Source: a virus
Lineage: Duplodnaviria; Caudoviricetes
Reading direction: 5' to 3' (one strand)
DNA: 64,000 bases
IMG/VR virus record: IMGVR_UViG_3300028914_000066
Location: 28,970 to 92,969 of that record
The first letter of the stretch is position 1; each line of letters starts with the position of its first letter. Under the pieces are notes generated by a model. The model made no database searches. It was not told the origin of the DNA and saw nothing but the letters and a program-made list of their open reading frames with translations. The translations under genes and the position numbers were made by a program. This document shows positions 376 to 59,676 of the stretch, in pieces.

Positions 376-3300
376 ATGGCTAAAAAATATTCAAATAATC
401 CTATTCCTGATAAATATACTGATTGGGGTAAAGATCCTACATATCATAATTATCCTTTTAGTGGTAGATCAGTTCAAAATTATATAAAGGAACAATTTGA
501 CAATAAAGTTGGTTATCTCCATCCAGATGCTAGTAATGAAAATTATTTATTATTTGCAGATGAAGATAACTATAACCTTTATATGTCAGATCCTGTACAA
601 TATGCAGATTTGCTTATAGGTACTGTTCCTTTAGCATCAAATTATGTAGTTGCTATAGATTTAGAAAATACTGAAACTATCAATTATATTAATTATGGTG
701 ATACAGGTAACTATATTCAGGCTTACTTTAAAGTTTTAAATAAAGGTGGTGCTGAAATTAGTGATGAGTTTAAAGTTACAATTACAATTCGTAATGGTTC
801 AGCTGTAACTACACTTCATAGAAATGCAACTTATGGTACATTATTTAGCTTAAATATTGATGAATATTTAACTGAAGGAACTAATGTTGTTACTTTATCA
901 GTAGCAGCAGTTACTTATGGTGTAGGTAGTTCTATATCATTAATGTATCATGCTATTGTTCTTAGAGTATCTGATGATTTAGATTTATCAGAAGTTTATG
1001 GTTCTGAGAATGAAGTTATTGAAGCTGCTGTACATATTGAAGGTACAGGTACTAAAAGAATTGAATGGTTTGTTGATGGAGTTCAACTTCCTTTTGATTC
1101 TCAAACTGATGAAACATCTCAATCTTCTACAACTTTAACAAGATATATTTCTGTATCACAATTAGCTGAAGGTAGACATAATCTTCAATATAGGGCAGTT
1201 GTTAATATTAATAGTGTTAATTTCTATAGTGATACTCAATATAGAGATTTCATTGTTTATAGAGGACAAACTTTAGATACTATTATTGTCAATTCTTTCT
1301 CTTATAGGGGAGTTTCTCTTATTGATCCTACTGATGATCCTATTGATTTGGGTTCAGTAGAGCAATATATGACAAAAGAAATAAAGTATGCTATTTATAA
1401 TCCTAATAATGTAGCAGTAAATTCTCTTGAAATAACTATTGCTGGTAAAACTACTACAGTAAATGCTGATAATTATAATGAATATACTTATGAATTAAAA
1501 GCATTTAGTGCAGGTTCAACAAGTTTATCATTTAGTTTAAATGGTACAACATTGGAATATAATGTAGATGTTGAACAATCAAGTTTAGATTTAGATACAA
1601 TAGGTAATACTGAATTTGAATTTGAAGGTAATTGTAGAGTTAATACATCTATTGATAAACGATTAGAGAATTGGTCTTTCCATGCTTTGAGTGGTAGTAC
1701 TTATGCTGCTTCTATGAGTGGATTTGATTATACTGAAAGAAATGGTTGGACAGGTGAAGGATTAATGATAGGTGCTGGAGCTTCTCTTGCATTTAATTGT
1801 GCGCCTTTAAATTATAATATTGTTCAAAATGGTGGTACATTTGAATTTGAATTTGAAACAAGACGAGTTCTTGATGATGATGAAATAATTTGCACTTTGA
1901 TGCAAAATGGTGTTGGTATTAGAATTACTGCATCTGAAGCTAAGATTGTATCACAACAAGGTGTTGAATTATCTTGTAAATATAAAGCTGAAGAAAGAAA
2001 TAGAATTACATTTGTAATTAATCCTTTAAATGCTGCTGTTAATAAAGGTCTTGTATTTATCTTTATTAATGGTATTCTTTCTGGTGTAAAGAATTATCAA
2101 GTTGGTGATAGTTTTACATCAAATATATATGCTGTATTTGCAGGTAGTGCTGATGCTAATATTGTTCTTTATCAATTAAGATTTTATAGAAGAGCTTTAC
2201 GTCTTGATGAAGTTCTTAATAACTATATTCTTTACAGACCTACTGTTGATGAATTATTAGAAGCTTATGATAAGAATGATATTTATACAGGTGGTTCATT
2301 ATCACTTGATAAACTTTCTGCTCAAACTCCTATTATAATTATAACAGGTAATGTTCAAGAACTTCAAGACTTTACAAAAGCAGATAAAGGAACATATAGA
2401 AAGATGGCTAAGATTGAAGTTATAAATACTGATGATCCTACTAGAAATCTTACTCTTGTTGATGCTAGTATGCGTTGTCAGGGTACATCTTCTATGAACT
2501 ATCCTAAAAAGAATTTCCGTTTCTATACTCAGGCTGATAGTAAAGATGAAACTGTAGCATCTTATACAACTAAGATGTACGATTATGAAGGTACTGAATA
2601 TACAGGTGAAGATAGACTTTATGCTTTCAAACAAGGTGCTCAGCCAGTTAAAACTTGGTGTTTGAAAGCTGATTATGCTGAATCTTCTTCAACACATAAT
2701 ACAGGTACTGCAAGACTTTGGAATAATCTTCTTAAAAATGCAGTTATTCAGAATATAGATCAAAGATATTGTCAAAAAGGAAGTATTCCTTATAATGGTA
2801 CTACTCCTTGTAGAACACAAGCTCAGCAAGCTGCTATTGATAATAACTATGAATATGATGTTCGTACTGCTATTGATGGATTTCCTATTGTACTTTTCTA
2901 TCATCTTAATGAAAATGATCCTCTTATATTCTTAGGAAAATATAATTGGAATAACGATAAATCAACTGAATCAGTATTTGGTTTTAAAGATGTTCCTGGC
3001 TTTAATAATGAACATATGGAATGTTGGGAAGTTGTTAATGGTGACTATCCTGAAAACTTATTTACTGATTTAAGTAATTGGGATACTGATATTCAATATG
3101 AAGGTAAAACCATGAAAGGATGGCAACGTGCTTTTGAAGCTCGTTATCCTGATGATAGTGGTAAACCTTCAGAACAAACTCGTGCAGATCAAGCTCTTAA
3201 AACTTTTGCAACTTGGATTAATGGATTGAAAACTGCTGCTAAAGTTCAAGGAGGTCAGGTAGTTGTAGACGATGTTTCAGTTATGGCTACATTTAGTGAA

Positions 3301-6300
3301 CAAAAATGGCTTCATATGGATGTTTATAAGATGGCTGCTTATTATGTTTATCTTATGCGTCAAGGAGCTGTAGACCAGACTGTTAAAAATGCAATGTTTA
3401 CAACTGAAGATGGTCAGCATTGGTATTATATTCTTTACGATAATGATACTATTAATGGTTTGGATAACAATGGTGCATTAGCATTTGGATATAATATTGA
3501 TAGACAAACTATTGATCCTAGAACAGGTAATAGTTATTGTTATGCTGGTCATGATTCTGTTCTTTGGAATAATCTTGAAGCTGATGCTGATTTTATGGCA
3601 ATTGTTAAAATTGTAGACCAAGCTCTTTATAATGTAGGTCTTACATATGCAGCTGCTATAAATATGTATAATAATGAACAATCTAAGAAGTGGTCTGAAA
3701 GAATACATAATCTTGATTCTCAGTATAAGTATCTTGATCCTTGGCTTAATGATAATAACTCAGTAGGTCTTCCTAAACTTCAAGGTGCTCGTGATACTCA
3801 TCGTCAATGGTGGTTATCTAACAGATTTGCATTATATGATGCAATTAATGTTACAGGTGCTTATAAAGCTAATGTATTCCTTGTACGTGTATCTTCTGTT
3901 ACATTACCTGCTCCTGTAAATGCTTATATAACTCCTGCTAGAACAGGTCAAGTTTATGGTTATGGTAAAGGTGGTGTACCTATAGTTGCTGGTGTAATTG
4001 GAACTGTTGATGTTCCTATTGCTATGCAAATTAGCGATGAACTTTATGTTGGTGCATCATTAGATTTCTATAATGCTGTATTTGCTAAGAAGATTGATAT
4101 TTCTGCTATATCTCAATATCTTACTGAAATTCATCTTGAGGCTATTAATTCAGAAGCTTTTGATTCTTCACTTGAAGAATTGATTTTAGGTACTGAAATT
4201 TCTGAAGTAAATGTTAATGCTTTAACACAATTAACTAATTTAGGTAAAGCTAAATATTTAAAGAAACTTGGTATTTGCAACTTTAATGGTCTTGTAAGTA
4301 TTGATTTATCACAAAATAATTATCTTGAAGAATTAGATGCTCGTGGGTGTGCTAATTTAACTAATATAGTATTTCCTGATGCAGCACCTATTAGTGCATT
4401 ATATTTGCCTGCTAATTTACAACGACTCGCCCTTAAAGAGATAACAACATTACAAACTTTAAGTTTAGTAAATAATGGTGAAACTATTACAAATATTGAT
4501 ATTCGTAATTGTAATATTGCTGGATTTACAGATGCACCTACTAAACTTTTTGCTTGGATGAATGCTAGAGGTGATGTTCAAGGTCAATTAGATGTTTATG
4601 TAGATAATATTAATTGGAATAATATAGATCCTGATGATATTATTGAGTTTGGTCAATATGTTAAATCTAAAGGTTATCTTACATTAAAAGGTAGATGTGT
4701 TCTTTCTAGTTTAACTCTTGAACAAGTTGATAGTTTAAGAGAAGTATTTGGTAATAATTGTTTTGATGCTGATGCTTCACTTAGATTTATTGCTACAGGT
4801 ATATTCTTTACAGGTCCTGATGATATACTTTCTGATGGTCAATATCAATATGCTGTTGTAAATGCTACTGGTGCACAAGGTACTATTACATATTCTATTA
4901 CTCAATCTGCTAGTATTACAGGATTAACTATTAGTAATCAAGGTTTACTTACTGTTCCTGAAGTAACAGGTAGTGATAAAAATATTACAATTCGTGCTAC
5001 TTTTGAGGATGCAACAACAGGTGATATTACTAATGAAACAATGAATATTGTTGTAAGAAAACGTGTATATCCTGCAAATGCTACTATTAATGGTCCTGCT
5101 AGAGTTGAAAGTAGAGAAACATATAATTGGTCTACAACTACAACAGGTATTAATACAAATGATAAAATGTATGCAGAATGGACTTTAACAGGTGATATTA
5201 CTAATTCTGTTAGAATAGCATCTCAAAATTTACAATCTTGCATACTTGAATTATTTGGTAGTCCTATAAATGAAACTGGTACTTTAACATTAACATTAAA
5301 GAAAGTTGCTGATGATAGTACAATTCTAACTACAACTATGAATGTATCAGCTTTTAATAATTCTATTGCATTTACAAAAGAAACAGATCCTTATCTTGTA
5401 GAAGTAATGCATAGTAATTATAATGCTAATGGGGATCTTCTTTGTGCAAGTGCAGATTATATGACTAAAGCAGAATGTAATGCAGTTGTAAATGAAGATT
5501 TATATCAACATTTAACTCCTACACAAGCTAATAGTATATTTTATAACAATACTAATTTTAGAAATTATTGTACAAATTTAGATGCTTTAAAATATTTTAC
5601 TGGACTTACAGAAATACCAGATTATTGTTTTTATGCATGTAATATAATTGAAATAACAATACCAGAAAATATAGTAGTAATAGGCAATAATGCGTTAAAA
5701 TATTATAATACTGTAAATAATGAATCTTCTTATAAATTAAATAAATTAGAATTTATAGATAATATAAAACCTATTACAATAAATGGTTTAAATTTAAGAA
5801 TAAATTCAGATTTAATATTTACAAAACCTATAATTATTACACAATCAGCTGGTTTATGTTTTTGGAATAATAATAGAGATATTTTACGTACTGTAACATT
5901 CAATAAATTAAATATAAATAATGGTTCAGTATGTACTGGTGGTATTGGTAGTAGTGGAAGCTATTGGCTTACTAGTAATATAACATTAAAAGTTTTAGAA
6001 TCAGATTATATAAAACAAGAAAATTATGGTTGTTTTTATGCAAAAGATATAGAAATATATTTTGAATTATCAAATGATAATAATTATAAATATTTTGTTA
6101 ACGACATTTCAAATTTATTTTTTAAAGATACAACAATAATTCCAGATAGGGTTATAGCCAACGTAACTAATTTAGATGTAAATATTTATTGTGATAAGGA
6201 AATAAATTATATAGGAAACTATTATCTTTATGGCAAATTATATTTGCTTAATAATACAAGTGTTCCTCAAACTTGTAATTTAATTAATTCACGTCTTGGA

Positions 6301-7167
6301 GGAAAATGCATTGTGGTTCGTCATGATATGTTATCAGCTTTCCAAAATGCATTTCCTGCTATTGCAGATCATTTTACTGATGAATTTACACCAGAAGGCG
6401 ATCCTGTAGATTTTACAGTTACAGGCGATGATGTTCCTGGACAAGCTATAGGAACTATTCTTCATGTAGCTAAAACTTATAATGGTCATTACGCTGATGG
6501 AACTCAAGGACAAGAAGTAATAGTTGAAGATATGGAACAAGAGGATAACTTCTTTGCTCAAAATGAAGGTAATACACCTATTACAAGAACTTTTAATGTT
6601 ACAATTGATACAATTACAAAAAGTTGTACTATAAATCAAGAAGTAATAGATAATACTTTGAGTGAATTTGAGTATCCAACAGGAAATAATATTAAAGTTA
6701 TTTATGGTACAACATATAAAGATGATATTATAAATCTTTATATAGATAATAAAAAGAAAATTATAAACAGAACTAATTATAATATACAAAATTCTGGTTA
6801 TAATGTATTAATGAAATTAAATTCAAATATAACAAATAGTACAAGTTTATACGGAACTGCAATTAAAAAAGTTAAACTTAAAAATATTAATAATATATAT
6901 AGTTCAATATTTGAGCGATGTTCTAATTTAACTAATGTAGAATTTCCTTCTACTTTAAGTACATTTAAAGGAGATTTATGTAAAAATTGTCCATTAACAG
7001 AATTAATATTTTTAAGTATAACAGCTCCATCTTATTATCAATCTGTAAGTCTTAATACAACAGGTTGGGGTGAAAATGGCATTCTTAAATATCCTCAAGG
7101 TTCTAATTATTCTAATATTACAAGTAGAATTCCTTCAGGTTGGACTACAGAAGAATTAACAATTTAA
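376..7167 (+). CDS. Giant multidomain tail fibre / receptor-binding-type protein (Ig-like, LamG-like, CotH kinase-like and leucine-rich-repeat regions)
   Basis: 2263 aa. LamG-like GGTFEFEF…FIFINGILSG…LYQLRFYRRAL; CotH-like KKNFRF, KADYAESS, DQTVKN, YDNDT; LRRs LEELDARGCANL and BspA-like LKYFTGLTEIPDYCF, FERCSNLTNVEFPSTL. Confidence 0.75.
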   Translation: MAKKYSNNPIPDKYTDWGKDPTYHNYPFSGRSVQNYIKEQFDNKVGYLHPDASNENYLLFADEDNYNLYMSDPVQYADLLIGTVPLASNYVVAIDLENTETINYINYGDTGNYIQAYFKVLNKGGAEISDEFKVTITIRNGSAVTTLHRNATYGTLFSLNIDEYLTEGTNVVTLSVAAVTYGVGSSISLMYHAIVLRVSDDLDLSEVYGSENEVIEAAVHIEGTGTKRIEWFVDGVQLPFDSQTDETSQSSTTLTRYISVSQLAEGRHNLQYRAVVNINSVNFYSDTQYRDFIVYRGQTLDTIIVNSFSYRGVSLIDPTDDPIDLGSVEQYMTKEIKYAIYNPNNVAVNSLEITIAGKTTTVNADNYNEYTYELKAFSAGSTSLSFSLNGTTLEYNVDVEQSSLDLDTIGNTEFEFEGNCRVNTSIDKRLENWSFHALSGSTYAASMSGFDYTERNGWTGEGLMIGAGASLAFNCAPLNYNIVQNGGTFEFEFETRRVLDDDEIICTLMQNGVGIRITASEAKIVSQQGVELSCKYKAEERNRITFVINPLNAAVNKGLVFIFINGILSGVKNYQVGDSFTSNIYAVFAGSADANIVLYQLRFYRRALRLDEVLNNYILYRPTVDELLEAYDKNDIYTGGSLSLDKLSAQTPIIIITGNVQELQDFTKADKGTYRKMAKIEVINTDDPTRNLTLVDASMRCQGTSSMNYPKKNFRFYTQADSKDETVASYTTKMYDYEGTEYTGEDRLYAFKQGAQPVKTWCLKADYAESSSTHNTGTARLWNNLLKNAVIQNIDQRYCQKGSIPYNGTTPCRTQAQQAAIDNNYEYDVRTAIDGFPIVLFYHLNENDPLIFLGKYNWNNDKSTESVFGFKDVPGFNNEHMECWEVVNGDYPENLFTDLSNWDTDIQYEGKTMKGWQRAFEARYPDDSGKPSEQTRADQALKTFATWINGLKTAAKVQGGQVVVDDVSVMATFSEQKWLHMDVYKMAAYYVYLMRQGAVDQTVKNAMFTTEDGQHWYYILYDNDTINGLDNNGALAFGYNIDRQTIDPRTGNSYCYAGHDSVLWNNLEADADFMAIVKIVDQALYNVGLTYAAAINMYNNEQSKKWSERIHNLDSQYKYLDPWLNDNNSVGLPKLQGARDTHRQWWLSNRFALYDAINVTGAYKANVFLVRVSSVTLPAPVNAYITPARTGQVYGYGKGGVPIVAGVIGTVDVPIAMQISDELYVGASLDFYNAVFAKKIDISAISQYLTEIHLEAINSEAFDSSLEELILGTEISEVNVNALTQLTNLGKAKYLKKLGICNFNGLVSIDLSQNNYLEELDARGCANLTNIVFPDAAPISALYLPANLQRLALKEITTLQTLSLVNNGETITNIDIRNCNIAGFTDAPTKLFAWMNARGDVQGQLDVYVDNINWNNIDPDDIIEFGQYVKSKGYLTLKGRCVLSSLTLEQVDSLREVFGNNCFDADASLRFIATGIFFTGPDDILSDGQYQYAVVNATGAQGTITYSITQSASITGLTISNQGLLTVPEVTGSDKNITIRATFEDATTGDITNETMNIVVRKRVYPANATINGPARVESRETYNWSTTTTGINTNDKMYAEWTLTGDITNSVRIASQNLQSCILELFGSPINETGTLTLTLKKVADDSTILTTTMNVSAFNNSIAFTKETDPYLVEVMHSNYNANGDLLCASADYMTKAECNAVVNEDLYQHLTPTQANSIFYNNTNFRNYCTNLDALKYFTGLTEIPDYCFYACNIIEITIPENIVVIGNNALKYYNTVNNESSYKLNKLEFIDNIKPITINGLNLRINSDLIFTKPIIITQSAGLCFWNNNRDILRTVTFNKLNINNGSVCTGGIGSSGSYWLTSNITLKVLESDYIKQENYGCFYAKDIEIYFELSNDNNYKYFVNDISNLFFKDTTIIPDRVIANVTNLDVNIYCDKEINYIGNYYLYGKLYLLNNTSVPQTCNLINSRLGGKCIVVRHDMLSAFQNAFPAIADHFTDEFTPEGDPVDFTVTGDDVPGQAIGTILHVAKTYNGHYADGTQGQEVIVEDMEQEDNFFAQNEGNTPITRTFNVTIDTITKSCTINQEVIDNTLSEFEYPTGNNIKVIYGTTYKDDIINLYIDNKKKIINRTNYNIQNSGYNVLMKLNSNITNSTSLYGTAIKKVKLKNINNIYSSIFERCSNLTNVEFPSTLSTFKGDLCKNCPLTELIFLSITAPSYYQSVSLNTTGWGENGILKYPQGSNYSNITSRIPSGWTTEELTI
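1297..1314 (+). repeat. Dispersed motif copy 1 (G-orientation, degenerate)
   Basis: ttctcttataggggagtt, inside CDS 376..7167. Confidence 0.55.
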
Positions 7168-8028: not shown

Positions 8029-8228
8029 CTGCTAATGAAGAGAAAGAACTACTTAGATTAACTAAAGAAAATAACTTTATGTTAAAACAAATGTATGGTT
8101 ATATTTCTCATCATATAGCAAATATTAATCAAGAGAATACGGATGACTTTATTAGAAATATTCTTGCTAATGTTATTTCTAACTCCCCTTTAAAAGGAAA
8201 TGATAACAATGGATTTAACAATAGATGA
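8025..8228 (+). CDS. Hypothetical protein
   Basis: 67 aa, ATGA-coupled to the previous gene. Confidence 0.65.
   Translation: MTANEEKELLRLTKENNFMLKQMYGYISHHIANINQENTDDFIRNILANVISNSPLKGNDNNGFNNR
8181..8200 (-). repeat. Dispersed motif copy 2 (C-orientation)
   Basis: aactcccctttaaaaggaaa; encodes NSPLKG. Confidence 0.75.
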
Positions 8229-8283
8229 TAATACTAAAAATAAAATAATTAATCGTTATATTAATAAATTAAAACTTAAACGT

Positions 8284-8787
8284 ATGGAACTTAAACACAC
8301 TGTTTCTTTAATGCTTAGTTCTGATTATAAAGAACGTTTTATAGCAGAGTATCTTCAAGTTAAAATTAGATATGAAAAACTTATTGCTATGTGTAATAAG
8401 TGGGATGAAGGTAAACTTGAGTTTACACCTACTTGTCCTAGAAGTCTTTATGCTGACCAACTTGGATATATGCAAGCTTATATGTCAGTTCTTGAAGAAC
8501 GTGCTAAACTTGAAGGTATTGATTTATCTGAAGAAACTTTAGCTCATAGAACAGAGTATGTTCCTAGAGTTAAGGAATTTAGACAACTTGGTGATGAATT
8601 AATTCAATCTGTTAAAGAACTTCAACCTTCTAAAGAAGTTGAATTAAGTATAATTAAATTTCAAGAAGGTGTTATGTGGTTAGGTATGGAACTTAAACGT
8701 ATTAATGAACCTAATCCTTATCCTAATAGCAAAGATGCTAGCACAGGAAACGTTATTGATAAAACAGCTGATGGTTTAAAACTTTAA
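8284..8787 (+). CDS. crAss001_48-like domain fused to an Acb2/Tad1-like hairpin domain (candidate anti-defence sponge)
   Basis: Track ORF 8200..8787, likely start ATG 8284. N-half SSDYKERFIAEY…TPTCP…MQAYMSVLEERA; C-half SKEVELSIIKFQEGVMWLG resembles the Tad1/Acb2 'RExSLAITKLEEAxMWL' helix. Confidence 0.6.
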   Translation: MELKHTVSLMLSSDYKERFIAEYLQVKIRYEKLIAMCNKWDEGKLEFTPTCPRSLYADQLGYMQAYMSVLEERAKLEGIDLSEETLAHRTEYVPRVKEFRQLGDELIQSVKELQPSKEVELSIIKFQEGVMWLGMELKRINEPNPYPNSKDASTGNVIDKTADGLKL

Positions 8788-8790: not shown

Positions 8791-9114
8791 ATGGAAAATA
8801 TTATTAATGAGATTATTCAATCAATTCTTAGTAGTTTTGATTTTGCTTTTTGTCTTATAGTTAATTTAGCAACTTACTTTGTTATTCAAGGTCTTACTGC
8901 TTGTAAACTTAATCTTGGTACTTGGGCTAAAAGAGGCATTTTAGTAGCAATCATTCTTCTTACGGGGGTGCTTTATAAGGTTACTAATGCTGATGATATA
9001 AGAGTTCTTATTAATAGTGCAATACTTGCACCTGTTAGTTGGAGTTGGATATTTAAACCTATACTTAAATATTTAGGTCTTGATTATAAAAAGAAAGAAG
9101 ATGGCAAAGAGTAA
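8791..9114 (+). CDS. Putative holin
   Basis: 107 aa with about three hydrophobic segments and a highly charged C-terminus (YKKKEDGKE). Confidence 0.65.
   Translation: MENIINEIIQSILSSFDFAFCLIVNLATYFVIQGLTACKLNLGTWAKRGILVAIILLTGVLYKVTNADDIRVLINSAILAPVSWSWIFKPILKYLGLDYKKKEDGKE
8954..8973 (+). repeat. Dispersed motif copy 3 (G-orientation)
   Basis: ttcttcttacgggggtgctt, inside the holin gene. Confidence 0.85.
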
Positions 9115-13121: not shown

Positions 13122-13188
13122 CAATACATATTATATATAATAATATTATATAATATATAATTAATAATAATATACATAATATAAATAT

Positions 13189-13210
13189 AAGCACCCCTGT
13201 AAGAAAAGAA
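13189..13210 (-). repeat. Dispersed motif copy 4 (C-orientation)
   Basis: aagcacccctgtaagaaaagaa, intergenic. Confidence 0.8.
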
Positions 13211-13346
13211 TATACTATTCTGGGATATGGTTAAACAGATTTTCTTTCATACGCACTTATTCATATTGTGTAATTTATCTTAATAATTAGGTTAGTGATT
13301 TTGGTTAATAAACATAAAGTAGTTAGAGATAATAACTTTAATGTTG

Positions 13347-13368
13347 TTCTTCTTTTACGGGGGTGCTT
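13347..13368 (+). repeat. Dispersed motif copy 5 (G-orientation)
   Basis: ttcttcttttacgggggtgctt, upstream of the 13395 start. Confidence 0.9.
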
Positions 13369-13394
13369 TAATTAAGATAATTATTCATATTTTT

Positions 13395-14078
13395 ATGGCT
13401 AGTATAAATCAACTTGTATCTGAATTTGCTCACAGTGTTGGTATGCCCAACAATAAAGCACTTCGTGAAAATCTTAAACTATTGATTGTACAAACTCGTA
13501 ATGAGGTTGTTAGACGTAGTTATGAGAATCATGGTTATGTTGATAAAATATTAACTCAAAGATTTGAAGTTTCATTAACAAATGTTAATGATGGAGATAT
13601 TCAAATTCCTGAAGGAATTGAAATAGATATTGCTAAAATAAAGAGAACTACACAAAAAGTTCCTAGACCTATAAGATTAACAAATAATCTTCCGTTTGAT
13701 AGAGTAAGCTCTGTTGGTTTTGCAACTAGCAGAGTTTTTCCTTATATCAAGGAAACAAGTGCTAGATTTAGAAATGCAGTTCCAGGTCTTAGTGGAATGA
13801 TTTGTTATGATTATATTAATGAATATATTTATTTATTTCCTACTAATTGTAATAGTATAAAGTTAGATAAAATTGTAATTGAGTCTGCTTTTGAACATCC
13901 AAATGAAATTGCTATAATGCAAGGTGATGACGAAATGACTATTGCTATGGATAATAATGAATGGTTATTATCTGAAGATATGATTGGACAAATAAAAGAA
14001 TTAATATATAAGAGAGATTTACTTTCAACAATTAGGCAGACTAATGAAATTCCTAATGAAGTAAAATTTAATAATTAA
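13395..14078 (+). CDS. crAss-like tail ring / structural protein
   Basis: Track ORF 13341..14078, likely start MASINQLVSE at 13395. Size and position before the tubular and muzzle genes. Confidence 0.6.
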   Translation: MASINQLVSEFAHSVGMPNNKALRENLKLLIVQTRNEVVRRSYENHGYVDKILTQRFEVSLTNVNDGDIQIPEGIEIDIAKIKRTTQKVPRPIRLTNNLPFDRVSSVGFATSRVFPYIKETSARFRNAVPGLSGMICYDYINEYIYLFPTNCNSIKLDKIVIESAFEHPNEIAIMQGDDEMTIAMDNNEWLLSEDMIGQIKELIYKRDLLSTIRQTNEIPNEVKFNN

Positions 14079-45192: not shown

Positions 45193-45201
45193 CAATAAAA
45201 C

Positions 45202-45222
45202 AACTCCCACGTAAGAAGAGAA
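45202..45222 (-). repeat. Dispersed motif copy 11 (C-orientation, one core mismatch)
   Basis: aactcccacgtaagaagagaa, overlapping the terminator. Confidence 0.6.
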
Positions 45223-45249
45223 GTAGCTATTACAGTTACTTCTCTTTTT
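45216..45249 (+). terminator. Intrinsic terminator of the + strand block
   Basis: Stem aagagaagtagct / agttacttctctt followed by a T-run, just after the RNAP stop. Confidence 0.7.
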
Positions 45250-45321
45250 CATTGTGTAACCATGTGTTACAACAAAGTTTTTAAAAAATATATTCTAACT
45301 AGTGCTATTTTCTACATTTCA

Positions 45322-45343
45322 ATTTCCTTTTACAGGGGTGCTT
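45322..45343 (+). repeat. Dispersed motif copy 12 (G-orientation)
   Basis: atttccttttacaggggtgctt, intergenic. Confidence 0.9.
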
Positions 45344-45487
45344 TAGTTCACTAAGTACATTGTTCACCTAAGCATAGAAAATTGATTGTAGGGCAGGAAA
45401 CTAGCCAAATTTGCCAAATATCAGCTGTTATATACTCCAGACTGACGAGTAAATTGACTATCTATTATCTTTATTATCATCTTTATA

Positions 45488-46804: not shown

Positions 46805-47275
46805 CTATCTTATACATTTATCGTATAATGCAACACCAACATAAGTTATTTCAGGTGCATATTCAGTTTTTATAGTAAGAACTTCTGTATTTTTAAAATA
46901 AAGAACATATTGTAGTTCCTTTTTATTTAATACTTTAAAATATACAAGTGTACCATGTATCTTTTTATCTTCCTTAATCATACAAATATCAGCAAGTTTG
47001 CTATAATCCCAATCTTTAATATCTTCAAAGAAAAGACGTTTCTTTCTTGCATCTTTAATAGTTAAATTAGGTTGATTTCTTTCTACATATTGTTCACAGT
47101 CAGATTTATACATACTAGAATATTTGACAAGTTTTCTATCTTCATCAAATACACACCATAAATCAGAACCTACTTTATAAGGTTTTACAATTAAATTCAT
47201 AATATCTACATTGTTAGCATCATTTCCTTTTACGGGGGAGGTTGAATTAACTCCCCTGTAAAAGAAGAATGACAT
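46805..47275 (-). CDS. Hypothetical protein
   Basis: Track ORF 46805..47293. ATG at 47275 abuts the upstream stop. Confidence 0.6.
   Translation of the reverse strand: MSFFFYRGVNSTSPVKGNDANNVDIMNLIVKPYKVGSDLWCVFDEDRKLVKYSSMYKSDCEQYVERNQPNLTIKDARKKRLFFEDIKDWDYSKLADICMIKEDKKIHGTLVYFKVLNKKELQYVLYFKNTEVLTIKTEYAPEITYVGVALYDKCIR
47222..47270. repeat. Dispersed motif copies 13 and 14 as a close inverted pair
   Basis: atttccttttacgggggag-gttgaattaa-ctcccctgtaaaagaagaat. Confidence 0.9.
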
Positions 47276-47276
47276 A

Positions 47277-48344
47277 TTAAACAGCTTCAGCATAATTAAG
47301 CATTAAATCAAATGCTTTTGTAACTGCATTGTTACCACTACCCCAAAGTAAACTTTCAGTTCTCTTTTGACCTTCCATTTCTAATACATTAGAATAGTAT
47401 CCAGTAACAGCATTATATACACCCCAGCCTGTACCTTTAATTTCCTTTTGTGCTATACCATTGTAATAGTAATCAAACATTGTTGCAAGTTGATTAGCTT
47501 TTCTCATTGATATTTCACATCTGTCAAGAGTCATATAATCTCTATTAAAAAGTAATTCAAGACCTTTAGTAGGATTATAGTTTATTACTTTTGCATATTC
47601 TTCTTCAGTAAGTTGAAGTCTAGCAAAATAATCCATAGCTTGTAAATCATCCATTTTAAAGAACTCTAAAGACCTATAAAGATCCTGAACATTATTAGCC
47701 ATTTCACAAGCAATTCTTAATACTTCAGCACCTTTATCAAGACGTTCTTTAACAGTCTTTGTATGACGAATACGAATATGAGCAAAAGCTGATTGTCTAC
47801 CAGCAGCTAACATATTAGTACACATAACACGAAGAGGAGTAAACATAATATCTACAGCACCACTTCCATCATGAGCATTACTAAATACAAGATAATTATC
47901 AATTTTATCTCCATTTACAGTAGTTTCAATAGGAAGTTTTGCAGTAACATATACTTTTTGTCCAAAACCTAAACTACCAGCTGCTAAATAAATAGCTTTA
48001 TCTTCTCCAATTGCATCATCAAAGAAATTAAAAGCATCTAAATTTTGTACAACTTCATATTTAGATTTAACAAGACCAAGAGGTACATTTATATCAGTTC
48101 TATAAGTTGCAAAGGCATTATCTAATCCTCTATAAATATAACCATTTCTTGAAAATTCATTATGATTTTCGTCAATAATATTATTTCCATAAATACCAAA
48201 TGGCATTTTGGCAACTAATTCACACTTCTTAACTTGCCAATCAAGACCAGCTTTTTCCATTACCTCATGAGATGTAGTACAGCCTTTTACATCTTTAGTA
48301 AAACCATTAGACCATGGCACACCTCTAACTATATATTTACTCAT
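47277..48344 (-). CDS. DUF932/DUF945-family protein
   Basis: AGLDWQV, LGLVKSKYEVVQN, NAHDGSG, RVMCTN and GTGWGVYNAVT motifs. Confidence 0.85.
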   Translation of the reverse strand: MSKYIVRGVPWSNGFTKDVKGCTTSHEVMEKAGLDWQVKKCELVAKMPFGIYGNNIIDENHNEFSRNGYIYRGLDNAFATYRTDINVPLGLVKSKYEVVQNLDAFNFFDDAIGEDKAIYLAAGSLGFGQKVYVTAKLPIETTVNGDKIDNYLVFSNAHDGSGAVDIMFTPLRVMCTNMLAAGRQSAFAHIRIRHTKTVKERLDKGAEVLRIACEMANNVQDLYRSLEFFKMDDLQAMDYFARLQLTEEEYAKVINYNPTKGLELLFNRDYMTLDRCEISMRKANQLATMFDYYYNGIAQKEIKGTGWGVYNAVTGYYSNVLEMEGQKRTESLLWGSGNNAVTKAFDLMLNYAEAV

Positions 48345-51827: not shown

Positions 51828-52039
51828 TCTTTTTTAATTTTAAAACCTATATCAAGTGCTATATTAAAAATAACAAAACTAACTTCAAAATAATAAGCAT
51901 TAAAGAAATAAATTGCAGGTAATAAATAAAAATTATCAGTTCCTATCCAAATATTACAATTTATATCCAAACTATTATTATTTATATTATCTATTATTTT
52001 TCTTATTTTTGATTTACTATTATCCTTTTTCTTTTTCAT
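51824..52039 (-). CDS. Hypothetical protein
   Basis: 71 aa, overlapping both neighbours. Confidence 0.5.
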   Translation of the reverse strand: MKKKKDNSKSKIRKIIDNINNNSLDINCNIWIGTDNFYLLPAIYFFNAYYFEVSFVIFNIALDIGFKIKKE

Positions 52040-53261
52040 ACTTATTTTCTAATCTAATTATCTTTGCATGAAATGGAACTTGTTTAACGCCACTACGTTC
52101 ACGAAATTCTACAAAAGCATTATAGTTTTTAGTCAATTCTTCTTTTAAAGGGGTGCTTACGCATCTTTTTTGATCGTCTTGACTTGCATTATAAGTACAT
52201 TCAAAATATTCATCATTGATGTCATTTCTAAGAACAAATATTGGTAATCCTCGTTTATCTTCTTTAATATCAATTATTGAAAATAATCCATCATCTATTT
52301 TCTTAAATTTAAACATTGATTGATTACGTTTACCAAACTGATATTCAGCATCTGGATTACGAAGAATAAGTCCTTCAAAGCCTAAACTAATAAATTTATC
52401 TCTAAAGAATATTGCCTCTTGAATATTAGGTACTTCTACAGTATGAAGTAAAACAAATTGTCGTTTATTATTAAAATGTTCTTCTTTATTAGTAAACCAA
52501 TGATTAATTTTATCTGAAATATCAATATTATCAAACCTAAAATCATTTCTTCTAACAGCACTTATATTTTCACAAGCAATATCATAACACCAATATTGTA
52601 ACAAATAATGTTGAGGAAGTTGTGCATTTTTTACAAATGAATTTATATCATTTACAGAATAACCTGGAAGATAAAGTTCACCATCTAAATAAGCACCTTC
52701 TTCTATCATCATATCTAGAAGATCACTATTTATTTTAGGAAGTAGAATTTCATCCATCCAACGCATATTAGTAGTCCAATTTTGTCCTTCACGAGAATGA
52801 TATGTTAGAATAATTGGTGTGAATAAATCATTACCATTTCTTTCAGCACCAATAAGACAACGTAAACCATTAATTTTCCATTGTCCTAACATAGTACCAT
52901 ATTTCTCAAATGGTTTATTATCTTCTAATGTTTTTGCAAGCATAGGAAGAACAAAACCTTCAGAAGTAGTAGAATATTTAGGAAGATAAGTATTAAGATA
53001 ATGCATAAGAGAAGTACTATCCATTTGTTCAGGATATGTACTTTTAAAATTATCTCTAAGTTCACTTAATTCTTTATATCCTTCTTTACGTTTAGCTTTT
53101 ATTCTACTATTAGCTTCATCATGAAAAAATCTATGAGTTTTAATTTCTTCTATATGAAGATTTCCACCAACTAAACCAGTTTTAATTAATAGTTTCTGAT
53201 TTTCATTAGTAATTTCCCAAACAATAGGTTTACCTTGAGCATTTCTTTTATATAGTTTCAT
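52020..53261 (-). CDS. ATP-dependent DNA ligase
   Basis: Motif I WKINGLR, III LDGELY, IV EGLILR, V FKFK. Confidence 0.9.
   Translation of the reverse strand: MKLYKRNAQGKPIVWEITNENQKLLIKTGLVGGNLHIEEIKTHRFFHDEANSRIKAKRKEGYKELSELRDNFKSTYPEQMDSTSLMHYLNTYLPKYSTTSEGFVLPMLAKTLEDNKPFEKYGTMLGQWKINGLRCLIGAERNGNDLFTPIILTYHSREGQNWTTNMRWMDEILLPKINSDLLDMMIEEGAYLDGELYLPGYSVNDINSFVKNAQLPQHYLLQYWCYDIACENISAVRRNDFRFDNIDISDKINHWFTNKEEHFNNKRQFVLLHTVEVPNIQEAIFFRDKFISLGFEGLILRNPDAEYQFGKRNQSMFKFKKIDDGLFSIIDIKEDKRGLPIFVLRNDINDEYFECTYNASQDDQKRCVSTPLKEELTKNYNAFVEFRERSGVKQVPFHAKIIRLENKYEKEKG
52137..52158 (+). repeat. Dispersed motif copy 15 (G-orientation)
   Basis: ttcttcttttaaaggggtgctt; encodes STPLKEE on the minus strand. 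Confidence 0.8.
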
Positions 53262-53440
53262 TTCACTATTGCTATATTAGTTATACTTTTATTTTTAATT
53301 TCTCCTTTTATAATTCCAAATATTTCACTTGGAATATTTTCATCAGGAACTTCTATTATACGAGCTTCATATGAACTATTAACTCCCATATAATATTCTT
53401 CAGCACAAGGAATATTACAAATATGAATACTTAATTTCAT
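53258..53440 (-). CDS. Hypothetical protein
   Basis: 60 aa, ATGA-coupled. Confidence 0.55.
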   Translation of the reverse strand: MKLSIHICNIPCAEEYYMGVNSSYEARIIEVPDENIPSEIFGIIKGEIKNKSITNIAIVK

Positions 53441-53697: not shown

Positions 53698-54211
53698 AAT
53701 TAGTAAAAATAACTACTTTATTAGGCTTTCCTATCATACCATGATTATATTGTATTACTTTTGCTATATTTGTTGTATTAATCCAATCAATACCATCCAT
53801 TTGTAATGTTGGACTATTTAAATAATTAGGTCGTTTACCTTTTTCAATATAACAACAATGATTTATATAATCATAATTATTAGGAATTTTAATACCTTTG
53901 TGAATATTAAAATTATGGAGTTTAAGAGTTTCTAATGAAAGAAAATCTTTACTATTATCTTTCAAATTTATATGACCATAAGCTAAAACATTATCTCTTT
54001 TTATTGAATAATTTTGAAGAGTAACATTTTGTACTCGTGGATCATTTTGCATAAGACTATCTATAACTGCTTCATCTTCATCAGTTATAGGTATCATTAT
54101 AAGTTGTTCTACTCCTAATCCATTATATATTCTAGAAGTTAAAATCACTTTCTTCTCTTTCAAAGTCTGTAAACTGACTTTGCTCATATTGCTTATATCT
54201 AAGTCTGACAT
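53678..54211 (-). CDS. Hypothetical protein
   Basis: 177 aa, overlapping the primase 3' end; start uncertain. Confidence 0.6.
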   Translation of the reverse strand: MSDLDISNMSKVSLQTLKEKKVILTSRIYNGLGVEQLIMIPITDEDEAVIDSLMQNDPRVQNVTLQNYSIKRDNVLAYGHINLKDNSKDFLSLETLKLHNFNIHKGIKIPNNYDYINHCCYIEKGKRPNYLNSPTLQMDGIDWINTTNIAKVIQYNHGMIGKPNKVVIFTNFVYNKK

Positions 54212-55349
54212 ATGTTAAAGTTTCATTAATAAATTGTTCAATTTGTTTACTATTATACACTTTGTGTAAATCAGCAAAATCTTTAGCATGATAATTTGGT
54301 AAACCAAATTCACCTCTAGTTATAAATAGATAAGGAATATTATATGTTGTTGCCAAATAATTAGCACCTCTTCTTCCTGTTCTATCAAAATCTAACAATG
54401 ATATAATCATACCATCATCTTTAAGTTTATTATGAAGATATGAATATTCATTATCTTTAAGTAGATAGCTTTCACTTGGTAAGTTTACTACACCAATATT
54501 GAGTTTATCAGCTCCCCCGTAAAAGGAGAGATGACGTAAATAGCTACCTATACTTAATCTATCTTTACTACTTTTTGTAAGTAATATATAATCATAATTA
54601 TCAAGTTCAAGATTTAATAATCCTTCTATTACATTACAATTAGTAATAAATTTAAGTTCTGTTTGTCTATTTCTTAATGGAAAATAAAGTTTAATTAGTC
54701 TAATACCTTGTTTTTCTCCAAGTAAATAAGCATAACAAGGATCTTTTTTATTATAATAATATTTAGGATCACTATCTACACTTCTATTTACATAATATTG
54801 TTCTACAGGTATTACAAAATTTCTACTAAGAAATTGTAAACTTATATTCCAATTAGCCCAAACATCTTTATCATCCTTATTCCAAGAACGAGTAACAAGA
54901 TCAATTATTGGTCTTTTACCTCTGCTTTTAATAAGTGCATTTTTAATAGTTTCATCGATATTAGGATCTATTTCTTCTCCGTCTATAACTTTACTAAAAG
55001 TTATAGCAATATGTTTAAGAATGAAATAAAAATCATTCTTATTATTTGTTTCTATTCTTCTTTCATAGATAGAACTTAAAACATAAGCTACAACTCCGTA
55101 AATATCTTCAAAGAAACCAAATCCACCAAAATCACGAACTTTTAACCTACCTTTTTTATTATATTGAATACCCATACTAGGTGTATCTCCATCATCTCTA
55201 AATACTGAAGGAATAAGTTTATTGTATTTAATACAATATTCTACAGTTTCTTGTTTAAGTCCTAAATATTTAGCAACAATAGCTTCTTGAGATATTTTAG
55301 ATTCAATAAATTCTTTAGTAAGTTTAGTTGTAGCTATATTTCTTTTCAT
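54132..55349 (-). CDS. DNA primase (DnaG/TOPRIM-like, crAss type)
   Basis: SVFRDD…PS…RDFG N-domain; LTKSSKD, DFDRTG (DxD) and AKDFAD TOPRIM motifs. Confidence 0.8.
   Translation of the reverse strand: MKRNIATTKLTKEFIESKISQEAIVAKYLGLKQETVEYCIKYNKLIPSVFRDDGDTPSMGIQYNKKGRLKVRDFGGFGFFEDIYGVVAYVLSSIYERRIETNNKNDFYFILKHIAITFSKVIDGEEIDPNIDETIKNALIKSRGKRPIIDLVTRSWNKDDKDVWANWNISLQFLSRNFVIPVEQYYVNRSVDSDPKYYYNKKDPCYAYLLGEKQGIRLIKLYFPLRNRQTELKFITNCNVIEGLLNLELDNYDYILLTKSSKDRLSIGSYLRHLSFYGGADKLNIGVVNLPSESYLLKDNEYSYLHNKLKDDGMIISLLDFDRTGRRGANYLATTYNIPYLFITRGEFGLPNYHAKDFADLHKVYNSKQIEQFINETLTYVRLRYKQYEQSQFTDFEREESDFNF
54510..54530 (-). repeat. Dispersed motif copy 16 (C-orientation)
   Basis: agctcccccgtaaaaggagag; encodes SFYGGA on the minus strand. 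Confidence 0.88.
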
Positions 55350-55356
55350 ATCTGAA

Positions 55357-55402
55357 AAATAAAATAAAAAATAATGGCTATGTTATAAAACATAACCATT
55401 AT
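55357..55402 (-). terminator. Intrinsic terminator
   Basis: Stem ataatggctatgtt / aacataaccattat, followed on the minus strand by a long T-rich tract. Confidence 0.65.
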
Positions 55403-55422
55403 CTTTTAGAATTAATATACTA

Positions 55423-56307: not shown

Positions 56308-56343
56308 AGTTTAATTAAACTTTAAAAATTAATAAAGATAAAT

Positions 56344-56378
56344 ATAGGGAGAAAGACTAGCTATATCTTTCTCCCTAT
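56344..56378 (-). terminator. Intergenic hairpin / terminator
   Basis: atagggagaaaga / tctttctccctat, 13-bp perfect stem. Confidence 0.65.
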
Positions 56379-56397
56379 CTCCTAATGGACAATCAAA

Positions 56398-57210: not shown

Positions 57211-57273
57211 AATAAAATGTTTTTAAAAAGTTAATAAAAAATGATTAAGTTTTTATAGTTAAACACTATAAGT

Positions 57274-58218: not shown

Positions 58219-58244
58219 TATTTAAAAGAGCATTTAAGTCAATA

Positions 58245-58275
58245 CAAATATAGGCATTTATTTTCAATCATCAAT
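58245..58275 (-). promoter_or_regulatory. Bacteroidota-type promoter
   Basis: Minus strand aTTG (58275-72), 19-bp spacer, TATATTTG (58252-45). Confidence 0.55.
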
Positions 58276-59676
58276 CATAAAATCAAAATTATTTTTATCA
58301 TCATTGGCTATTTCACATTTATTAACTATTGTGTGCGTTTCCGACAACGATTTGTTAAATAGTTTTGACTCTTCTATTGTATTTTTACAAAAGATAGAAT
58401 ATAATTTTATTTTATCTTTATATACAACATTAGATAGACGATACATATAAGTTTCTATATCTTCACATAGTGGAGATGTTATAATAATAACATCAACATC
58501 AACAGTAAGCTTTTTATCAGGAGAATTTGATAAACTTAAAACATTAATTCTACCTAAATTAAATAGTTGTTCATTTAATGTTTTTTGAGATTGAACTCCC
58601 ATCATTTTTCTTTCTCCTTTAGCTTTTCCAGATTTAATATAAACAGCATTTCCATTAATATCAACAGCAGGAATATCATCAACTTTATCATGATAATTAG
58701 CGCAAATGATAGTTTCAGACATACTATTTACATATTCAGTAACCTTATTAGCAAATTCGCCTCTTTTACTAATTACTAATATTTTTTCACCTTTATGTTT
58801 ATTTATTATTTCAACAACTTTCTCAAGTTTAGGTTCATAATCACTAATAAGAATATTTCTATTTCTTATCATTTCATATGTTCTACCTGCTCTTTCTCTT
58901 AAACTGTTTGGATTATATAATTCATCAATATCTCTATTATATTGAATAGACATATCTAATGAATCATTCCAACCATTTTCAGTTGCTATTTGTAAACATA
59001 TAGAAGAAGCTGAAATATTAAGAACAGCATTACCCATTCTAGCTTGTTGCATATTATTAAAACTACCAAATATATTAAGAGAAGTTTGAATATACTCTGT
59101 ATATTTTTGATAATCTTTATAATCTTGGGTTTCTGTAGGTATTTCTATTTTAATCCATTCTTCTTCTACGGGGGTGCTTAAGCGAATTGCCTCTACTTCT
59201 TTTTGTTTAAAAGCTGAAAGAAGTGGACAAACTTTATAAAGATCTTGTAATTGACTATAATCACTTAAAAGTTTATTGAAAATTACTAATTGAAAGTGGG
59301 CTTTTCTTAATAGTCCAAATATGTAATTAGTTATTTCCTCAGGATTATATATAATTACTAAATCTAATAATTGATTATAATCTTTTGCAAGATTATAACT
59401 AAATACTTTTAAAGTTTTATCATTAAGTAATTGTTTAAATTCCTTATCATTATCTTCATCTTGATTTGTTATAAAGTCAATTATATCCATTCTATCTTTG
59501 AATGTATTAGTAACAATAAGAATTCTACATTGAGGATTCTTACTATACATTCTAGTTAAAATGTTATAAATCATTATTTTATCATTAAGAGGAGGAGGAA
59601 TTAAACAAGTACCAACACCATGATTATTTTTCCATTCTTCTACAGCATCGTCAAATATTTGATTTATATCTGCCAT
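58264..59676 (-). CDS. Degenerate SF2 helicase-like protein
   Basis: Two-RecA-domain-like layout (KLEKVVEII…KILVIS…VDVIIITSP) but no Walker A or DExH motif. Confidence 0.55.
   Translation of the reverse strand: MADINQIFDDAVEEWKNNHGVGTCLIPPPLNDKIMIYNILTRMYSKNPQCRILIVTNTFKDRMDIIDFITNQDEDNDKEFKQLLNDKTLKVFSYNLAKDYNQLLDLVIIYNPEEITNYIFGLLRKAHFQLVIFNKLLSDYSQLQDLYKVCPLLSAFKQKEVEAIRLSTPVEEEWIKIEIPTETQDYKDYQKYTEYIQTSLNIFGSFNNMQQARMGNAVLNISASSICLQIATENGWNDSLDMSIQYNRDIDELYNPNSLRERAGRTYEMIRNRNILISDYEPKLEKVVEIINKHKGEKILVISKRGEFANKVTEYVNSMSETIICANYHDKVDDIPAVDINGNAVYIKSGKAKGERKMMGVQSQKTLNEQLFNLGRINVLSLSNSPDKKLTVDVDVIIITSPLCEDIETYMYRLSNVVYKDKIKLYSIFCKNTIEESKLFNKSLSETHTIVNKCEIANDDKNNFDFMIDD
59158..59179 (+). 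repeat. Dispersed motif copy 17 (G-orientation)
   Basis: ttcttcttctacgggggtgctt; encodes STPVEEE on the minus strand. Confidence 0.85.

Follow-up and report, generated by a model that had tools for sequence, protein, structure and literature searches.

The question raised by this stretch of DNA is why a dispersed, asymmetric word should change its orientation at almost every step along a phage genome. The stretch (hereafter the window, 64,000 nucleotides) comprises bases 28970–92969 of the 92,969-base record IMGVR_UViG_3300028914_000066, a gut crAss-like phage with a circular genome of 92.8 kb. crAss-like phages are the most abundant human gut viruses, and to our knowledge the mechanisms by which they replicate, package, and start transcription are largely not known. 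An earlier note on this DNA had read the alternation as a sign that the copies act as inverted pairs, such as loop anchors or polar barriers. The analysis below traces it instead, with high probability, to the way in which each strand is populated by itself.

Results

Definition of the site set

The word, ~22 nt long and reading approximately AGCWCCCCCGTAAAAGRARATG in its C-rich orientation, was confirmed as a dispersed asymmetric element of this genome. A copy was present at every coordinate given in the earlier note, the count of 17 in the window being too low: a full PWM scan gave 18 strong copies and one weak copy (degenerate, 27742–27769; PWM 17.1 in the 28-column scan, clear copies scoring at least 17.6). 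The copy absent from the earlier list is one of two, the G-oriented copy at 13358 or that at 20142. Over the whole genome the PWM scan gave ~30 copies, 13–14 C-oriented and 16–17 G-oriented, that is ~15 per DNA strand, ~7 kb apart, genes included, and overall ~1 per 3 kb. The site set is well defined because PWM scores are bimodal; ~30, 23, 21, 28, and 32 sites were found in five Intestiviridae genomes. A refitted 34-column PWM was over-fitted to the present genome (678 and 68534 gained, 16721 and 49111 lost), and the curated site list was used for this genome instead, with an equal outcome for either list. Since a terminase-profile search gave Intestiviridae only, the survey beyond that family consists of crAss001 and phi14:2.

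No description of the word was found in crAss papers by full-text literature search, literal words included; a Crassvirales review mentions no promoters, terminators, sequence motifs, inverted repeats, or nicks. In 596 Gb of bacterial genomes, searched with the p-crAssphage spelling, only scattered single matches were found; judged with that spelling, the word is not a host repeat.

Order of orientations

Along the window the orientations read G,C,G,C,G,G,C,G,(c),C,G,C,C,G,G,C,G,C,G, the weak copy being given in brackets. The near-strict alternation described before (14 switches in 16 steps) is non-random but not strict, with 14 switches in 17 steps (binomial p=0.0064, label-permutation p=0.009). 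Its breaks had been placed only at the two flanks of the transcription convergence zone; there is a third at 13358/20142, and counting the weak copy adds a fourth. The largest gap runs from 37654 to 45211 (7,557 bp), in agreement with the limit of ~7.6 kb noted earlier. Alternation outlasted the complete scan, the added strong copy making one more break without randomising the order, and it was seen in five other crAss-like genomes: ctcc615, 19/22 switches (p=0.0003); cr271_1, 14/20 (p=0.014); cr8_1, 22/27 (p=0.0009); the prototype p-crAssphage, 21/31 (p=0.04); crAss001, 19/26 (p=0.003). In the whole of the present genome 22 switches were counted among 30 sites (p ~0.007–0.011). A single orientation dominates the 29 kb outside the window; in the first 30 kb of the genome nine copies of one orientation stand against three or four of the opposite one.

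Spacing on each strand

Copies on the same strand are evenly spread. The median of 159 same-strand gaps is 6,784 bp, 90% are at most 10.3 kb, and a single one is shorter than 1.9 kb, compared with 39.3 expected. The coefficient of variation (CV) of the gaps is 0.25–0.55 per strand, compared with ~0.9 under random placement (p<=0.01 in 9 of 10 strand sets); with both strands merged it is 0.62–0.79, far less regular than either strand. In a rotation null, by which each strand retained its own spacing while the sites of one strand were shifted by a random offset, 117.4 ± 3.8 switches were obtained over six genomes, compared with 120 observed (p=0.33). Alternation needs no pairing, because rotated strand lattices reproduce the switch count, and the proposal of inverted pairs loses its basis in the orientation order. 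Close pairs aside, the position of a site between its opposite-strand neighbours is roughly uniform, not centred midway.

The alternation is very probably a by-product of two independent, evenly spaced lattices, one per strand, and arises entirely because each strand is evenly populated; interleaving two even lattices would give near-alternation automatically. Per-strand spacing should be controlled before orientation alternation is read as pairing.

In the relatives, the two orientations are about equally frequent or differ moderately in number (7 versus 14 in cr271_1). One strand is sparse over the early-plus-structural part of several genomes, with a one-strand gap of 38 kb in cr271_1 and the imbalance noted above in the first 30 kb of the present genome, so that a strict coverage rule fits poorly. 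GC skew tracks gene strand only and gave no replication-linked polarity.

Positions within and between genes

Copies in the window are C-rich (+) or G-rich (−) as read on the + strand. In the left part, G copies lie antisense at 1291–1318 (−) inside ORF 376–7167 (2263 aa); 8948–8975 (−) within ORF 8791–9114; 13343–13370 (−), covering the first codons of ORF 13341–14078; 20128–20155 (−) within ORF 19764–21194, with an orthologous site in cr8_1; 27666–27693 (−) within the giant ORF 24179–31042 (2287 aa); and 34710–34737 (−) within the giant ORF 34018–45192 (3724 aa), at a nucleotide position shared within 2 nt with ctcc615, cr271_1, and cr8_1. C copies in the sense direction are found at 20381–20408 (+) within ORF 19764–21194, coding S-T-P-V-K-G; 29992–30019 (+) within ORF 24179–31042; and 37642–37669 (+) within ORF 34018–45192, at offset 0 in ctcc615, cr271_1, and cr8_1. 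The degenerate copy at 27742–27769 (+, C) is likewise sense, 74 bp from the 27666 copy. ORF 34018–45192 maps to the giant gene of the relatives, annotated in p-crAssphage as RNAP catalytic subunit.

Other copies occupy junctions and intergenic space: 8177–8204 (+, C) at a gene junction, containing the ATG of ORF 8200–8787; 13186–13213 (+, C), intergenic (12965/13341) and forming a close pair with the 13343 copy (159 bp); 45199–45226 (+, C), a CCCAC variant beginning 7 nt past the stop codon of ORF 34018–45192; 45319–45346 (−, G), intergenic in the convergence zone and paired closely with the 45199 copy (122 bp). At the junction of ORFs 47277–48344 (DUF932) and 46805–47293, the copies at 47218–47245 (−, G) and 47245–47272 (+, C) are the left and right arms of an inverted pair.

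Further right, three copies lie in genes of the − strand. The copy at 52134–52161 (−, G), sense within the DNA ligase ORF 52020–53261, is lineage-specific: the relatives carry none there, and the stretch is variable with a 2-aa indel. The copy at 54507–54534 (+, C), antisense within the primase ORF 54132–55349 (S-F-Y-G-G-A), keeps its position in 4/4 complete relatives and in 20/21 IMG/VR relatives. The copy at 59154–59181 (−, G), sense within ORF 58264–59676 (S-T-P-V-E-E-E; SNF2-type ATPase/helicase by the relatives' annotation), is at offset 0 in 4/4 relatives, p-crAssphage among them.

Copy orientation shows no relation to transcription: 42 sites are genic and sense, 50 are genic and antisense, and 42 are intergenic, the last in all arrangements; ~69% of sites are inside genes, and all five stop-free frames are used. 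A protein-level motif was rejected on account of copies in five stop-free frames and on both strands. Likewise rejected was a start-codon or ribosome-site cassette, proposed from the ATG often following the purine tract: most such ATGs open no gene, and in relatives the ATG simply belongs to the word. A sigma-70 and terminator scan of 44–48 kb gave nothing above shuffles at the sites.

Sites shared across genera are offset by 0–2 nt in the helicase, the primase, the pre-terminase ORF, and the giant RNAP gene, at a local protein identity of merely 22–73%; within the primase gene, conservation is 95–100% in the block yTACGGGG, which adjoins a variable stretch. Lineage-specific sites were born by substitution, in the portal gene without insertion, and flank spelling is lineage-specific and uniform over all sites of a lineage. 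crAss001 has a like organisation with a different word, CTCCAGAAG, in 27 copies, compared with ~0.4 expected as estimated from base composition. Inversion by recombination, already doubted in the earlier note, is indeed unlikely, because the sites lie within conserved genes at orthologous nucleotides and are collinear there through four other genera; invertase or shufflon crossover sites were rejected on these grounds.

Close pairs and secondary structure

Opposite-strand pairs less than 400 bp apart number 21, compared with 9.0 expected (p=0.0004); 13 are convergent and 8 divergent, and crAss001 has none. Their places include the convergence zone and gene junctions, and some fold as strong hairpins: the 47218/47245 copies form a joint hairpin on either strand (−25 to −27 kcal/mol, z ~−6). 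The purine half of the 45199 copy makes up the left arm of a hairpin (−22 kcal/mol, z −5.6), behind which there is a U-run. The excess of close pairs is only partly explained by a common preference for scarce intergenic space, and it would be compatible with pairing at some of the places.

No consensus hairpin was found on the C-rich strand; on the G-rich strand there is a hairpin that is weak and G.U-dependent, ~1.5–2 kcal/mol below shuffles in 4/5 genomes, and neither result amounts to a convincing conserved hairpin in RNA or ssDNA. Conserved hairpins backed by compensatory changes would be the mark of structured single-strand signals such as N4 virion-RNAP hairpin promoters and G4-type ssi. 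In crAss001 the flanks of the copies are often complementary.

Discussion

Preferred explanation

On balance we lean towards two strand-wise lattices, selection at the DNA level, and reading of one strand by a phage factor as the best explanation overall. The genome would then carry one asymmetric ~22-nt word in two independent lattices, each on its own strand; selection would maintain the word on the DNA itself, for the sake of neither protein nor mRNA; and the reader would most likely be a phage-encoded factor acting on one strand at a time, with a specificity that co-evolves with the word. The process we favour is a step of DNA metabolism that would handle the strands separately and require, on each of them, a site no further off than some limit.

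Foremost among the candidates for such a step would be a sequence-specific start of strand synthesis on exposed ssDNA, by the phage primase or by the ssDNA-transcribing virion RNAP. Priming is the only process we can name that demands bounded spacing separately on each strand. The putative likeness to priming signals (extended T7 primase sites, G4-type single-strand initiation signals, primosome assembly sites) would lie in strand specificity, in an ssDNA template, and in being required on whichever strand is copied discontinuously. Known primase words are short and frequent, DnaG-type and T7-type primases using 3–5-nt sites; ssi/pas signals fold as hairpins and number one or two per replicon, whereas no convincing conserved hairpin was found for the present word. 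We know of no phage in which priming is confined to words of ~22 nt. That priming specifically is the process behind the word is a tentative proposal. More doubtful is the further reading that the start of discontinuous strand synthesis, or another strand-wise DNA step, is restricted to a lineage-specific word every ~7 kb. Its ssDNA reader would be a primase or a QDE-1-like, ssDNA-transcribing virion RNA polymerase. The virion RNAP of a crAss-like phage does transcribe single-stranded DNA, its promoter motif not being known (bioRxiv 10.1101/2020.03.07.982082). The phage whose RNAP was studied, phi14:2, has no comparable word, an observation that counts against the favoured explanation.

The pattern resembles that of the uptake sequences of Pasteurellaceae (USS) and Neisseriaceae (DUS), being asymmetric, in both orientations, more even than random, and tolerated in coding sequence. 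USS and DUS also run genome-wide in similar numbers, use preferred frames, and frequently form inverted pairs that give intergenic hairpins. They are bacterial, number ~1 per kb, and serve the competence machinery as recognition sites in DNA uptake, whereas the present word is found in a lytic phage at ~1 per 3 kb and is not a bacterial genome repeat in the p-crAssphage spelling. No competence proteins were seen among the examined gene products of this genome, and we know of no DNA-uptake step in lytic phages.

Alternative explanations

A Chi-like self-signal, although unlikely, survives best among the alternatives. The correctly oriented word would tame a helicase-nuclease tracking along one strand, either of the phage or of the host and modulated by the phage; as the run length of such an enzyme is bounded, each strand would need a copy within reach. 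Strand specificity, the occurrence of both orientations, bounded spacing, and independence of genes all fit such a signal, and a putative activity of the sites anywhere in the genome, genes included, would match the orientation-dependent behaviour of Chi (RecBCD/AddAB). Among the gene products of this genome are an SF1 RecD/UvrD-like helicase and a Gp157/Gam-like protein, and RecT and a PD-(D/E)XK nuclease are annotated in relatives; against this, no RecBCD/AddAB-like protein was found among the examined gene products. Known Chi words are 5–8 nt long, host-owned, and skewed with replication direction, whereas this word is ~22 nt long, evenly spaced on both strands, variable between phage lineages, and not enriched in bacterial genomes in the p-crAssphage spelling. 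Chi in the sense of a short over-represented host word was rejected for its length, its lineage specificity, and the merely scattered bacterial matches with that spelling.

It is improbable that the copies are architectural pairs, by which a protein would bridge opposite copies into loops or polar barriers bounding genome domains. The excess of close pairs and their location speak for such an arrangement, and the C/G run and A-rich run, joined by CpG and TpA steps, may make a bendable site. Against it, alternation arises without pairing, and beyond the close pairs the inter-strand phase is roughly uniform. A duplex binder blind to orientation would predict a regular merged set, contrary to the CVs given above; moreover, convergent and divergent arrangements both occur, and crAss001 lacks close pairs.

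About as improbable is a transcription signal (promoter, pause site, or terminator) for the phage's own RNAP on both strands, antisense RNA included. A genome-specific, asymmetric word of ~20 bp in 20–30 copies is reminiscent of the promoter repertoire of T7-type phages; in four genomes (the present one and three Obtuvirinae relatives) the last giant gene has a sense copy directly behind its stop codon; certain intergenic copies stand just upstream of start codons; and the crAss virion RNAP has no known promoter. Yet orientation ignores gene direction both within and between genes, and for half of the copies the RNA started or stopped would be antisense. A terminator is argued against by sense copies midway in long essential genes. 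A promoter set of the T7-like single-subunit-RNAP type was rejected on the sense and antisense counts within genes and on the intergenic copies in all arrangements. In phi14:2, no upstream motif is common to the early transcripts, and the host RNAP serves the middle and late genes (bioRxiv 10.1101/2020.03.07.982082), which also weighs against a transcription signal. Among dispersed sites in other phage genomes, the likeness to stoperators is limited: cluster A mycobacteriophages carry ~24–30 of these asymmetric 13–14-bp sites, bound by a phage protein, in one orientation relative to transcription and in short intergenic gaps, whereas here direction is ignored and most sites are genic.

Site-specific nicks, with a phage nickase cutting one strand per copy in virion DNA in the manner of T5, phiKMV-like phages, or Pseudomonas phage tf, are a slightly poorer prospect still. 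The nick words of these phages are also genome-specific, asymmetric consensus words at a limited number of places, for which site-enzyme co-evolution has been proposed and whose function is not known (PMC3517423). Their nicks, however, are all on one strand (14/14 in tf; PMC3517423), whereas here the strands are about equally populated; by the one-strand criterion the present genome, with sites in both orientations, was rejected from the localized-nick class. Nicking would give staggered breaks at the close opposite pairs 25–300 bp apart, and no nickase was found in the present genome.

A repeat without function for the phage, neutral or selfish (a miniature mobile element or a remnant of recombination), can practically be dismissed: some copies are inverted pairs flanking short segments, but sites at orthologous nucleotides across genera, in-frame origin by substitution without insertions, even per-strand spacing, spelling that shifts in concert within a lineage, and the absence of target duplications and conserved flanks all stand against it, and MITE/REP-like elements were rejected accordingly.

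Significance

If strand synthesis does start only at such words, this would be a replication grammar known in neither virus nor cell. A word of ~22 bases kept at constant nucleotides for as long as a virus family has existed, and contrary to the interests of the proteins that carry it, marks an indispensable process. The word offers a handle on that process, as a probe for pull-down of its reader and through sites that can be recoded in cultured crAss phages; it also provides a sequence signature by which crAss lineages may be recognised and typed.

A dispersed word and its copies

The five places named in the earlier note are all copies of one asymmetric word of about 22 nt, which is spelled approximately AGCWCCCCCGTAAAAGRARATG on its C-rich strand (C copies); the G copies of the note are its reverse complement. 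The window has 27% G+C, and the copies stand out from a mere listing of G or C runs of at least 4. A PWM was built from the copies and scanned over both strands, which gave 18 strong copies in the window, plus a degenerate one (27742–27769), and about 30 copies in the whole genome. Refitted PWMs were used across genomes, and their scores were bimodal in every genome examined; here, 30 sites score at least 19.6 and the next best at most 12.3. Two borderline degenerate copies, TAGCAATCCTATAAGCAAAGAAGATGCT at window 39553–39586 (genome 68522–68555) and one at window 4421–4448 (score 11.9 with a 28-column PWM), are outside the count and may be decaying or nascent sites.

The window corresponds to bases 28970–92969 of a 92,969-base contig whose first 100 bases reappear at 92818. 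Its ends overlap by 152 bases (genome 1–152 and 92818–92969, the latter being window 63849–64000), and the assembly is therefore circular, its true length being about 92,817 bp (~92.8 kb). The DNA polymerase B of this genome shares 67% identity with that of crAss-like phages of the Obtuvirinae, Intestiviridae, and 46–47% with that of prototype crAssphage (p-crAssphage). GC skew merely mirrors the direction of the genes; its turning points lie at 8.8 and 74.1 kb of the genome.

Orientation and spacing

The note had described near-strict alternation of orientation (14 switches in 16 steps, 17 copies). The alternation is non-random, though not strict: orientation changes at 14 of the 17 steps between the 18 strong copies of the window (p = 0.0064, binomial; p = 0.009, label permutation), one of 13358 (G) and 20142 (G) having been absent from the earlier list, and the 30 sites of the whole genome show 22 switches (p ~0.007–0.011). 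Three breaks are found, at 13358/20142, 37654/45211, and 45333/47233, in place of only two flanking the convergence zone; the largest gap in the window is 7,557 bp, in line with the limit of about 7.6 kb given before. The extra copies from the complete PWM scan do not randomise the pattern, and it is repeated in four further genomes of the Intestiviridae (ctcc615, 19/22 switches; cr271_1, 14/20; cr8_1, 22/27; p-crAssphage, 21/31; p 0.0003–0.04). The observation is real but overstated, and pairing is unnecessary as its explanation.

Each strand taken separately is evenly occupied. Same-strand gaps have a CV of 0.25–0.55, against ~0.9 for random placement (p ≤ 0.01 in nine of 10 strand sets), and the merged set, with orientation ignored, is far less regular (0.62–0.79). 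Across six genomes combined, the median of the 159 same-strand gaps is 6,784 bp, and 90% of them do not exceed 10.3 kb; a single gap is below 1.9 kb, where 39.3 are expected under random placement, and no same-strand copies are less than 1.5 kb apart. When the spacing of each strand was kept and the sites of one strand were rotated by a random amount relative to those of the other, 117.4 ± 3.8 switches were expected and 120 observed (p = 0.33); alternation is therefore fully explained as the outcome of two independent evenly spaced lattices, one per strand.

Inverted pairs acting as loop anchors or polar barriers, as proposed in the note, are thus not needed for the alternation, and the idea survives only for the close pairs. 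Sites are spread roughly uniformly over the interval between opposite-strand neighbours, save for an excess beside the opposite-strand site: the first twentieth of the interval holds 40 sites (16 expected), and 21 opposite-strand pairs (13 convergent, 8 divergent) are less than 400 bp apart (9.0 expected, p = 0.0004). Part of this close-pair excess would be expected, because sites of both strands crowd the same few intergenic gaps; 31% of sites are intergenic, and the intergenic share of these genomes is put, by rough estimate, at <10%. Inversion was judged unlikely in the note, and we concur.

Genome bases 1–30300 (window 1–1318 and the preceding 29 kb) carry nine G against three to four C copies, an excess that spans leftward early genes and rightward structural genes alike and recurs in the equivalent part of ctcc615, cr271_1, cr8_1, and p-crAssphage. 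The imbalance goes with genome position, not with transcription direction.

Occurrence in other crAss-like phages

With a lineage-specific spelling, the word is present in 21–32 copies per genome in ctcc615, cr271_1 (AGCTCCCCCGTAGAAGA), cr8_1 (AGCCGCCCCGTAAAAGGTATG), and p-crAssphage (GACYCCCCGTRGAGGATGG). It was also found in 21 IMG/VR contigs retrieved via the primase gene, each of which uses its own spelling at all its sites. IMGVR_UViG_3300021399_000131, without the near-universal primase and helicase gene copies and with few, degenerate copies in 21 kb, may represent a lineage losing or re-spelling the word.

The Intestiviridae word is absent from Bacteroides phage crAss001 (MH675552.1; Steigviridae), which has 27 copies of CTCCAGAAG on both strands, against ~0.4 expected as estimated from base composition. 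Their orientation switches in 19 of 26 steps (p = 0.003), and each strand by itself is evenly spaced, with a same-strand gap CV of 0.46 on the C strand, where the regularity is clear (p = 0.001), and 0.58 on the G strand (p = 0.08). Both words contain CTCC...AGAAG; in many crAss001 copies the flanks are complementary, as in GCTCC AGAA GGAGC, which may point to a small hairpin. Cellulophaga phage phi14:2 (NC_021806.1), of the same subfamily as crAss001, has no comparably over-represented 9–11-mer (best, CTGAAGCTG, 10 copies), and this marine crAss-like phage may lack the dispersed word.

Selection on the DNA

In five genomes, 42 sites are genic and sense, 50 genic and antisense, and 42 intergenic; the intergenic ones occur in all arrangements with respect to the genes on either side. 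Genic sites occupy all five stop-free frames (sense-frame peptides, P-V-E/K and P-R; antisense-frame peptides, S/F-T-G, Y-G-G, and L-R-G), and this use of every such frame in both gene senses excludes a protein motif.

Orthology of sites was assessed by mapping the surrounding protein onto the relatives. Sites coincide within 0–2 nt in several genes despite a local protein identity of just 22–73%: in the SNF2-type helicase gene (sense), the primase gene (antisense), and a small ORF before the terminase gene in four of four relatives, and at two places in the giant gene (3,724 aa; window 34018–45192) in the three Obtuvirinae. A sense copy directly 3′ of the giant gene stop codon is shared by this genome and the three Obtuvirinae relatives. 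The block yTACGGGG of the primase gene is conserved at 95–100% among 25 genomes, against 40–60% for the stretch just upstream.

Sites particular to this genome originated in place: in the portal gene, V-N-S-E-Y-S-T-T-V is replaced by V-Y-S-S-Y-G-V-F-V at the word with no indel, and in the ligase gene the stretch that holds the copy is variable and has a 2-aa indel. Orthologous positions, five frames, and in-place origin together exclude a mobile mini-element. The signal is selected as DNA.

Structures and host sequences

No consensus hairpin was found on the C-rich strand, and only a weak, G.U-dependent one on the G-rich strand. The two adjacent opposite copies at 47218–47272 (fold 47212–47276), which lie between the DUF932 gene and its neighbour, form a 14–15-bp hairpin (−25 to −27 kcal/mol, z ~−6) resembling the Neisseria uptake-sequence pairs that double as terminators. 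Just after the giant gene stop, the copy at 45199 forms one side of a 16-bp hairpin that runs into UUUUU (45195–45260, −22 kcal/mol), likely an intrinsic terminator ending the rightward gene arm. In bacterial genomes, the p-crAssphage spelling gave scattered single matches alone, of the order expected by chance, so that this spelling is neither a host repeat nor a host Chi.

Proposed function

The word is strand-specific, gene-indifferent, and ancient in position, and each strand requires its own copies within a limited distance. The spelling of the word co-evolves within each lineage, which points to a phage-encoded reader. The two strands behave as separate channels, and the merged set is not regular, as it would be with a duplex binder blind to orientation; a step that deals with each strand by itself is therefore favoured.

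For such a process, the start of strand synthesis is the leading candidate: the phage primase, or a virion polymerase transcribing single-stranded DNA, would start at the word on exposed single-stranded DNA. Against a strict coverage rule, one strand is sparse across the early-plus-structural part in several genomes (with a 38 kb gap in cr271_1), phi14:2 is without such a word, and known primases use sites far shorter than ~22 nt. A Chi-like signal for a helicase-nuclease ranks next after strand-synthesis start.

In phi14:2, the one crAss-like phage with dissected transcription, the virion RNA polymerase uses single-stranded DNA as template, no upstream motif is common to the early transcripts, and the middle and late genes are transcribed by the host RNA polymerase (bioRxiv 10.1101/2020.03.07.982082). 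In phages with localized nicks (T5, phiKMV-like, tf), the consensus words are confined to one strand (PMC3517423), whereas the crAss-like word is on both. A full-text search that included the literal words and covered few subscription journals turned up no account of the signal in the crAss literature. Beneath the alternation thus lies a striking signal of gut crAss-like phages that has apparently gone undescribed.
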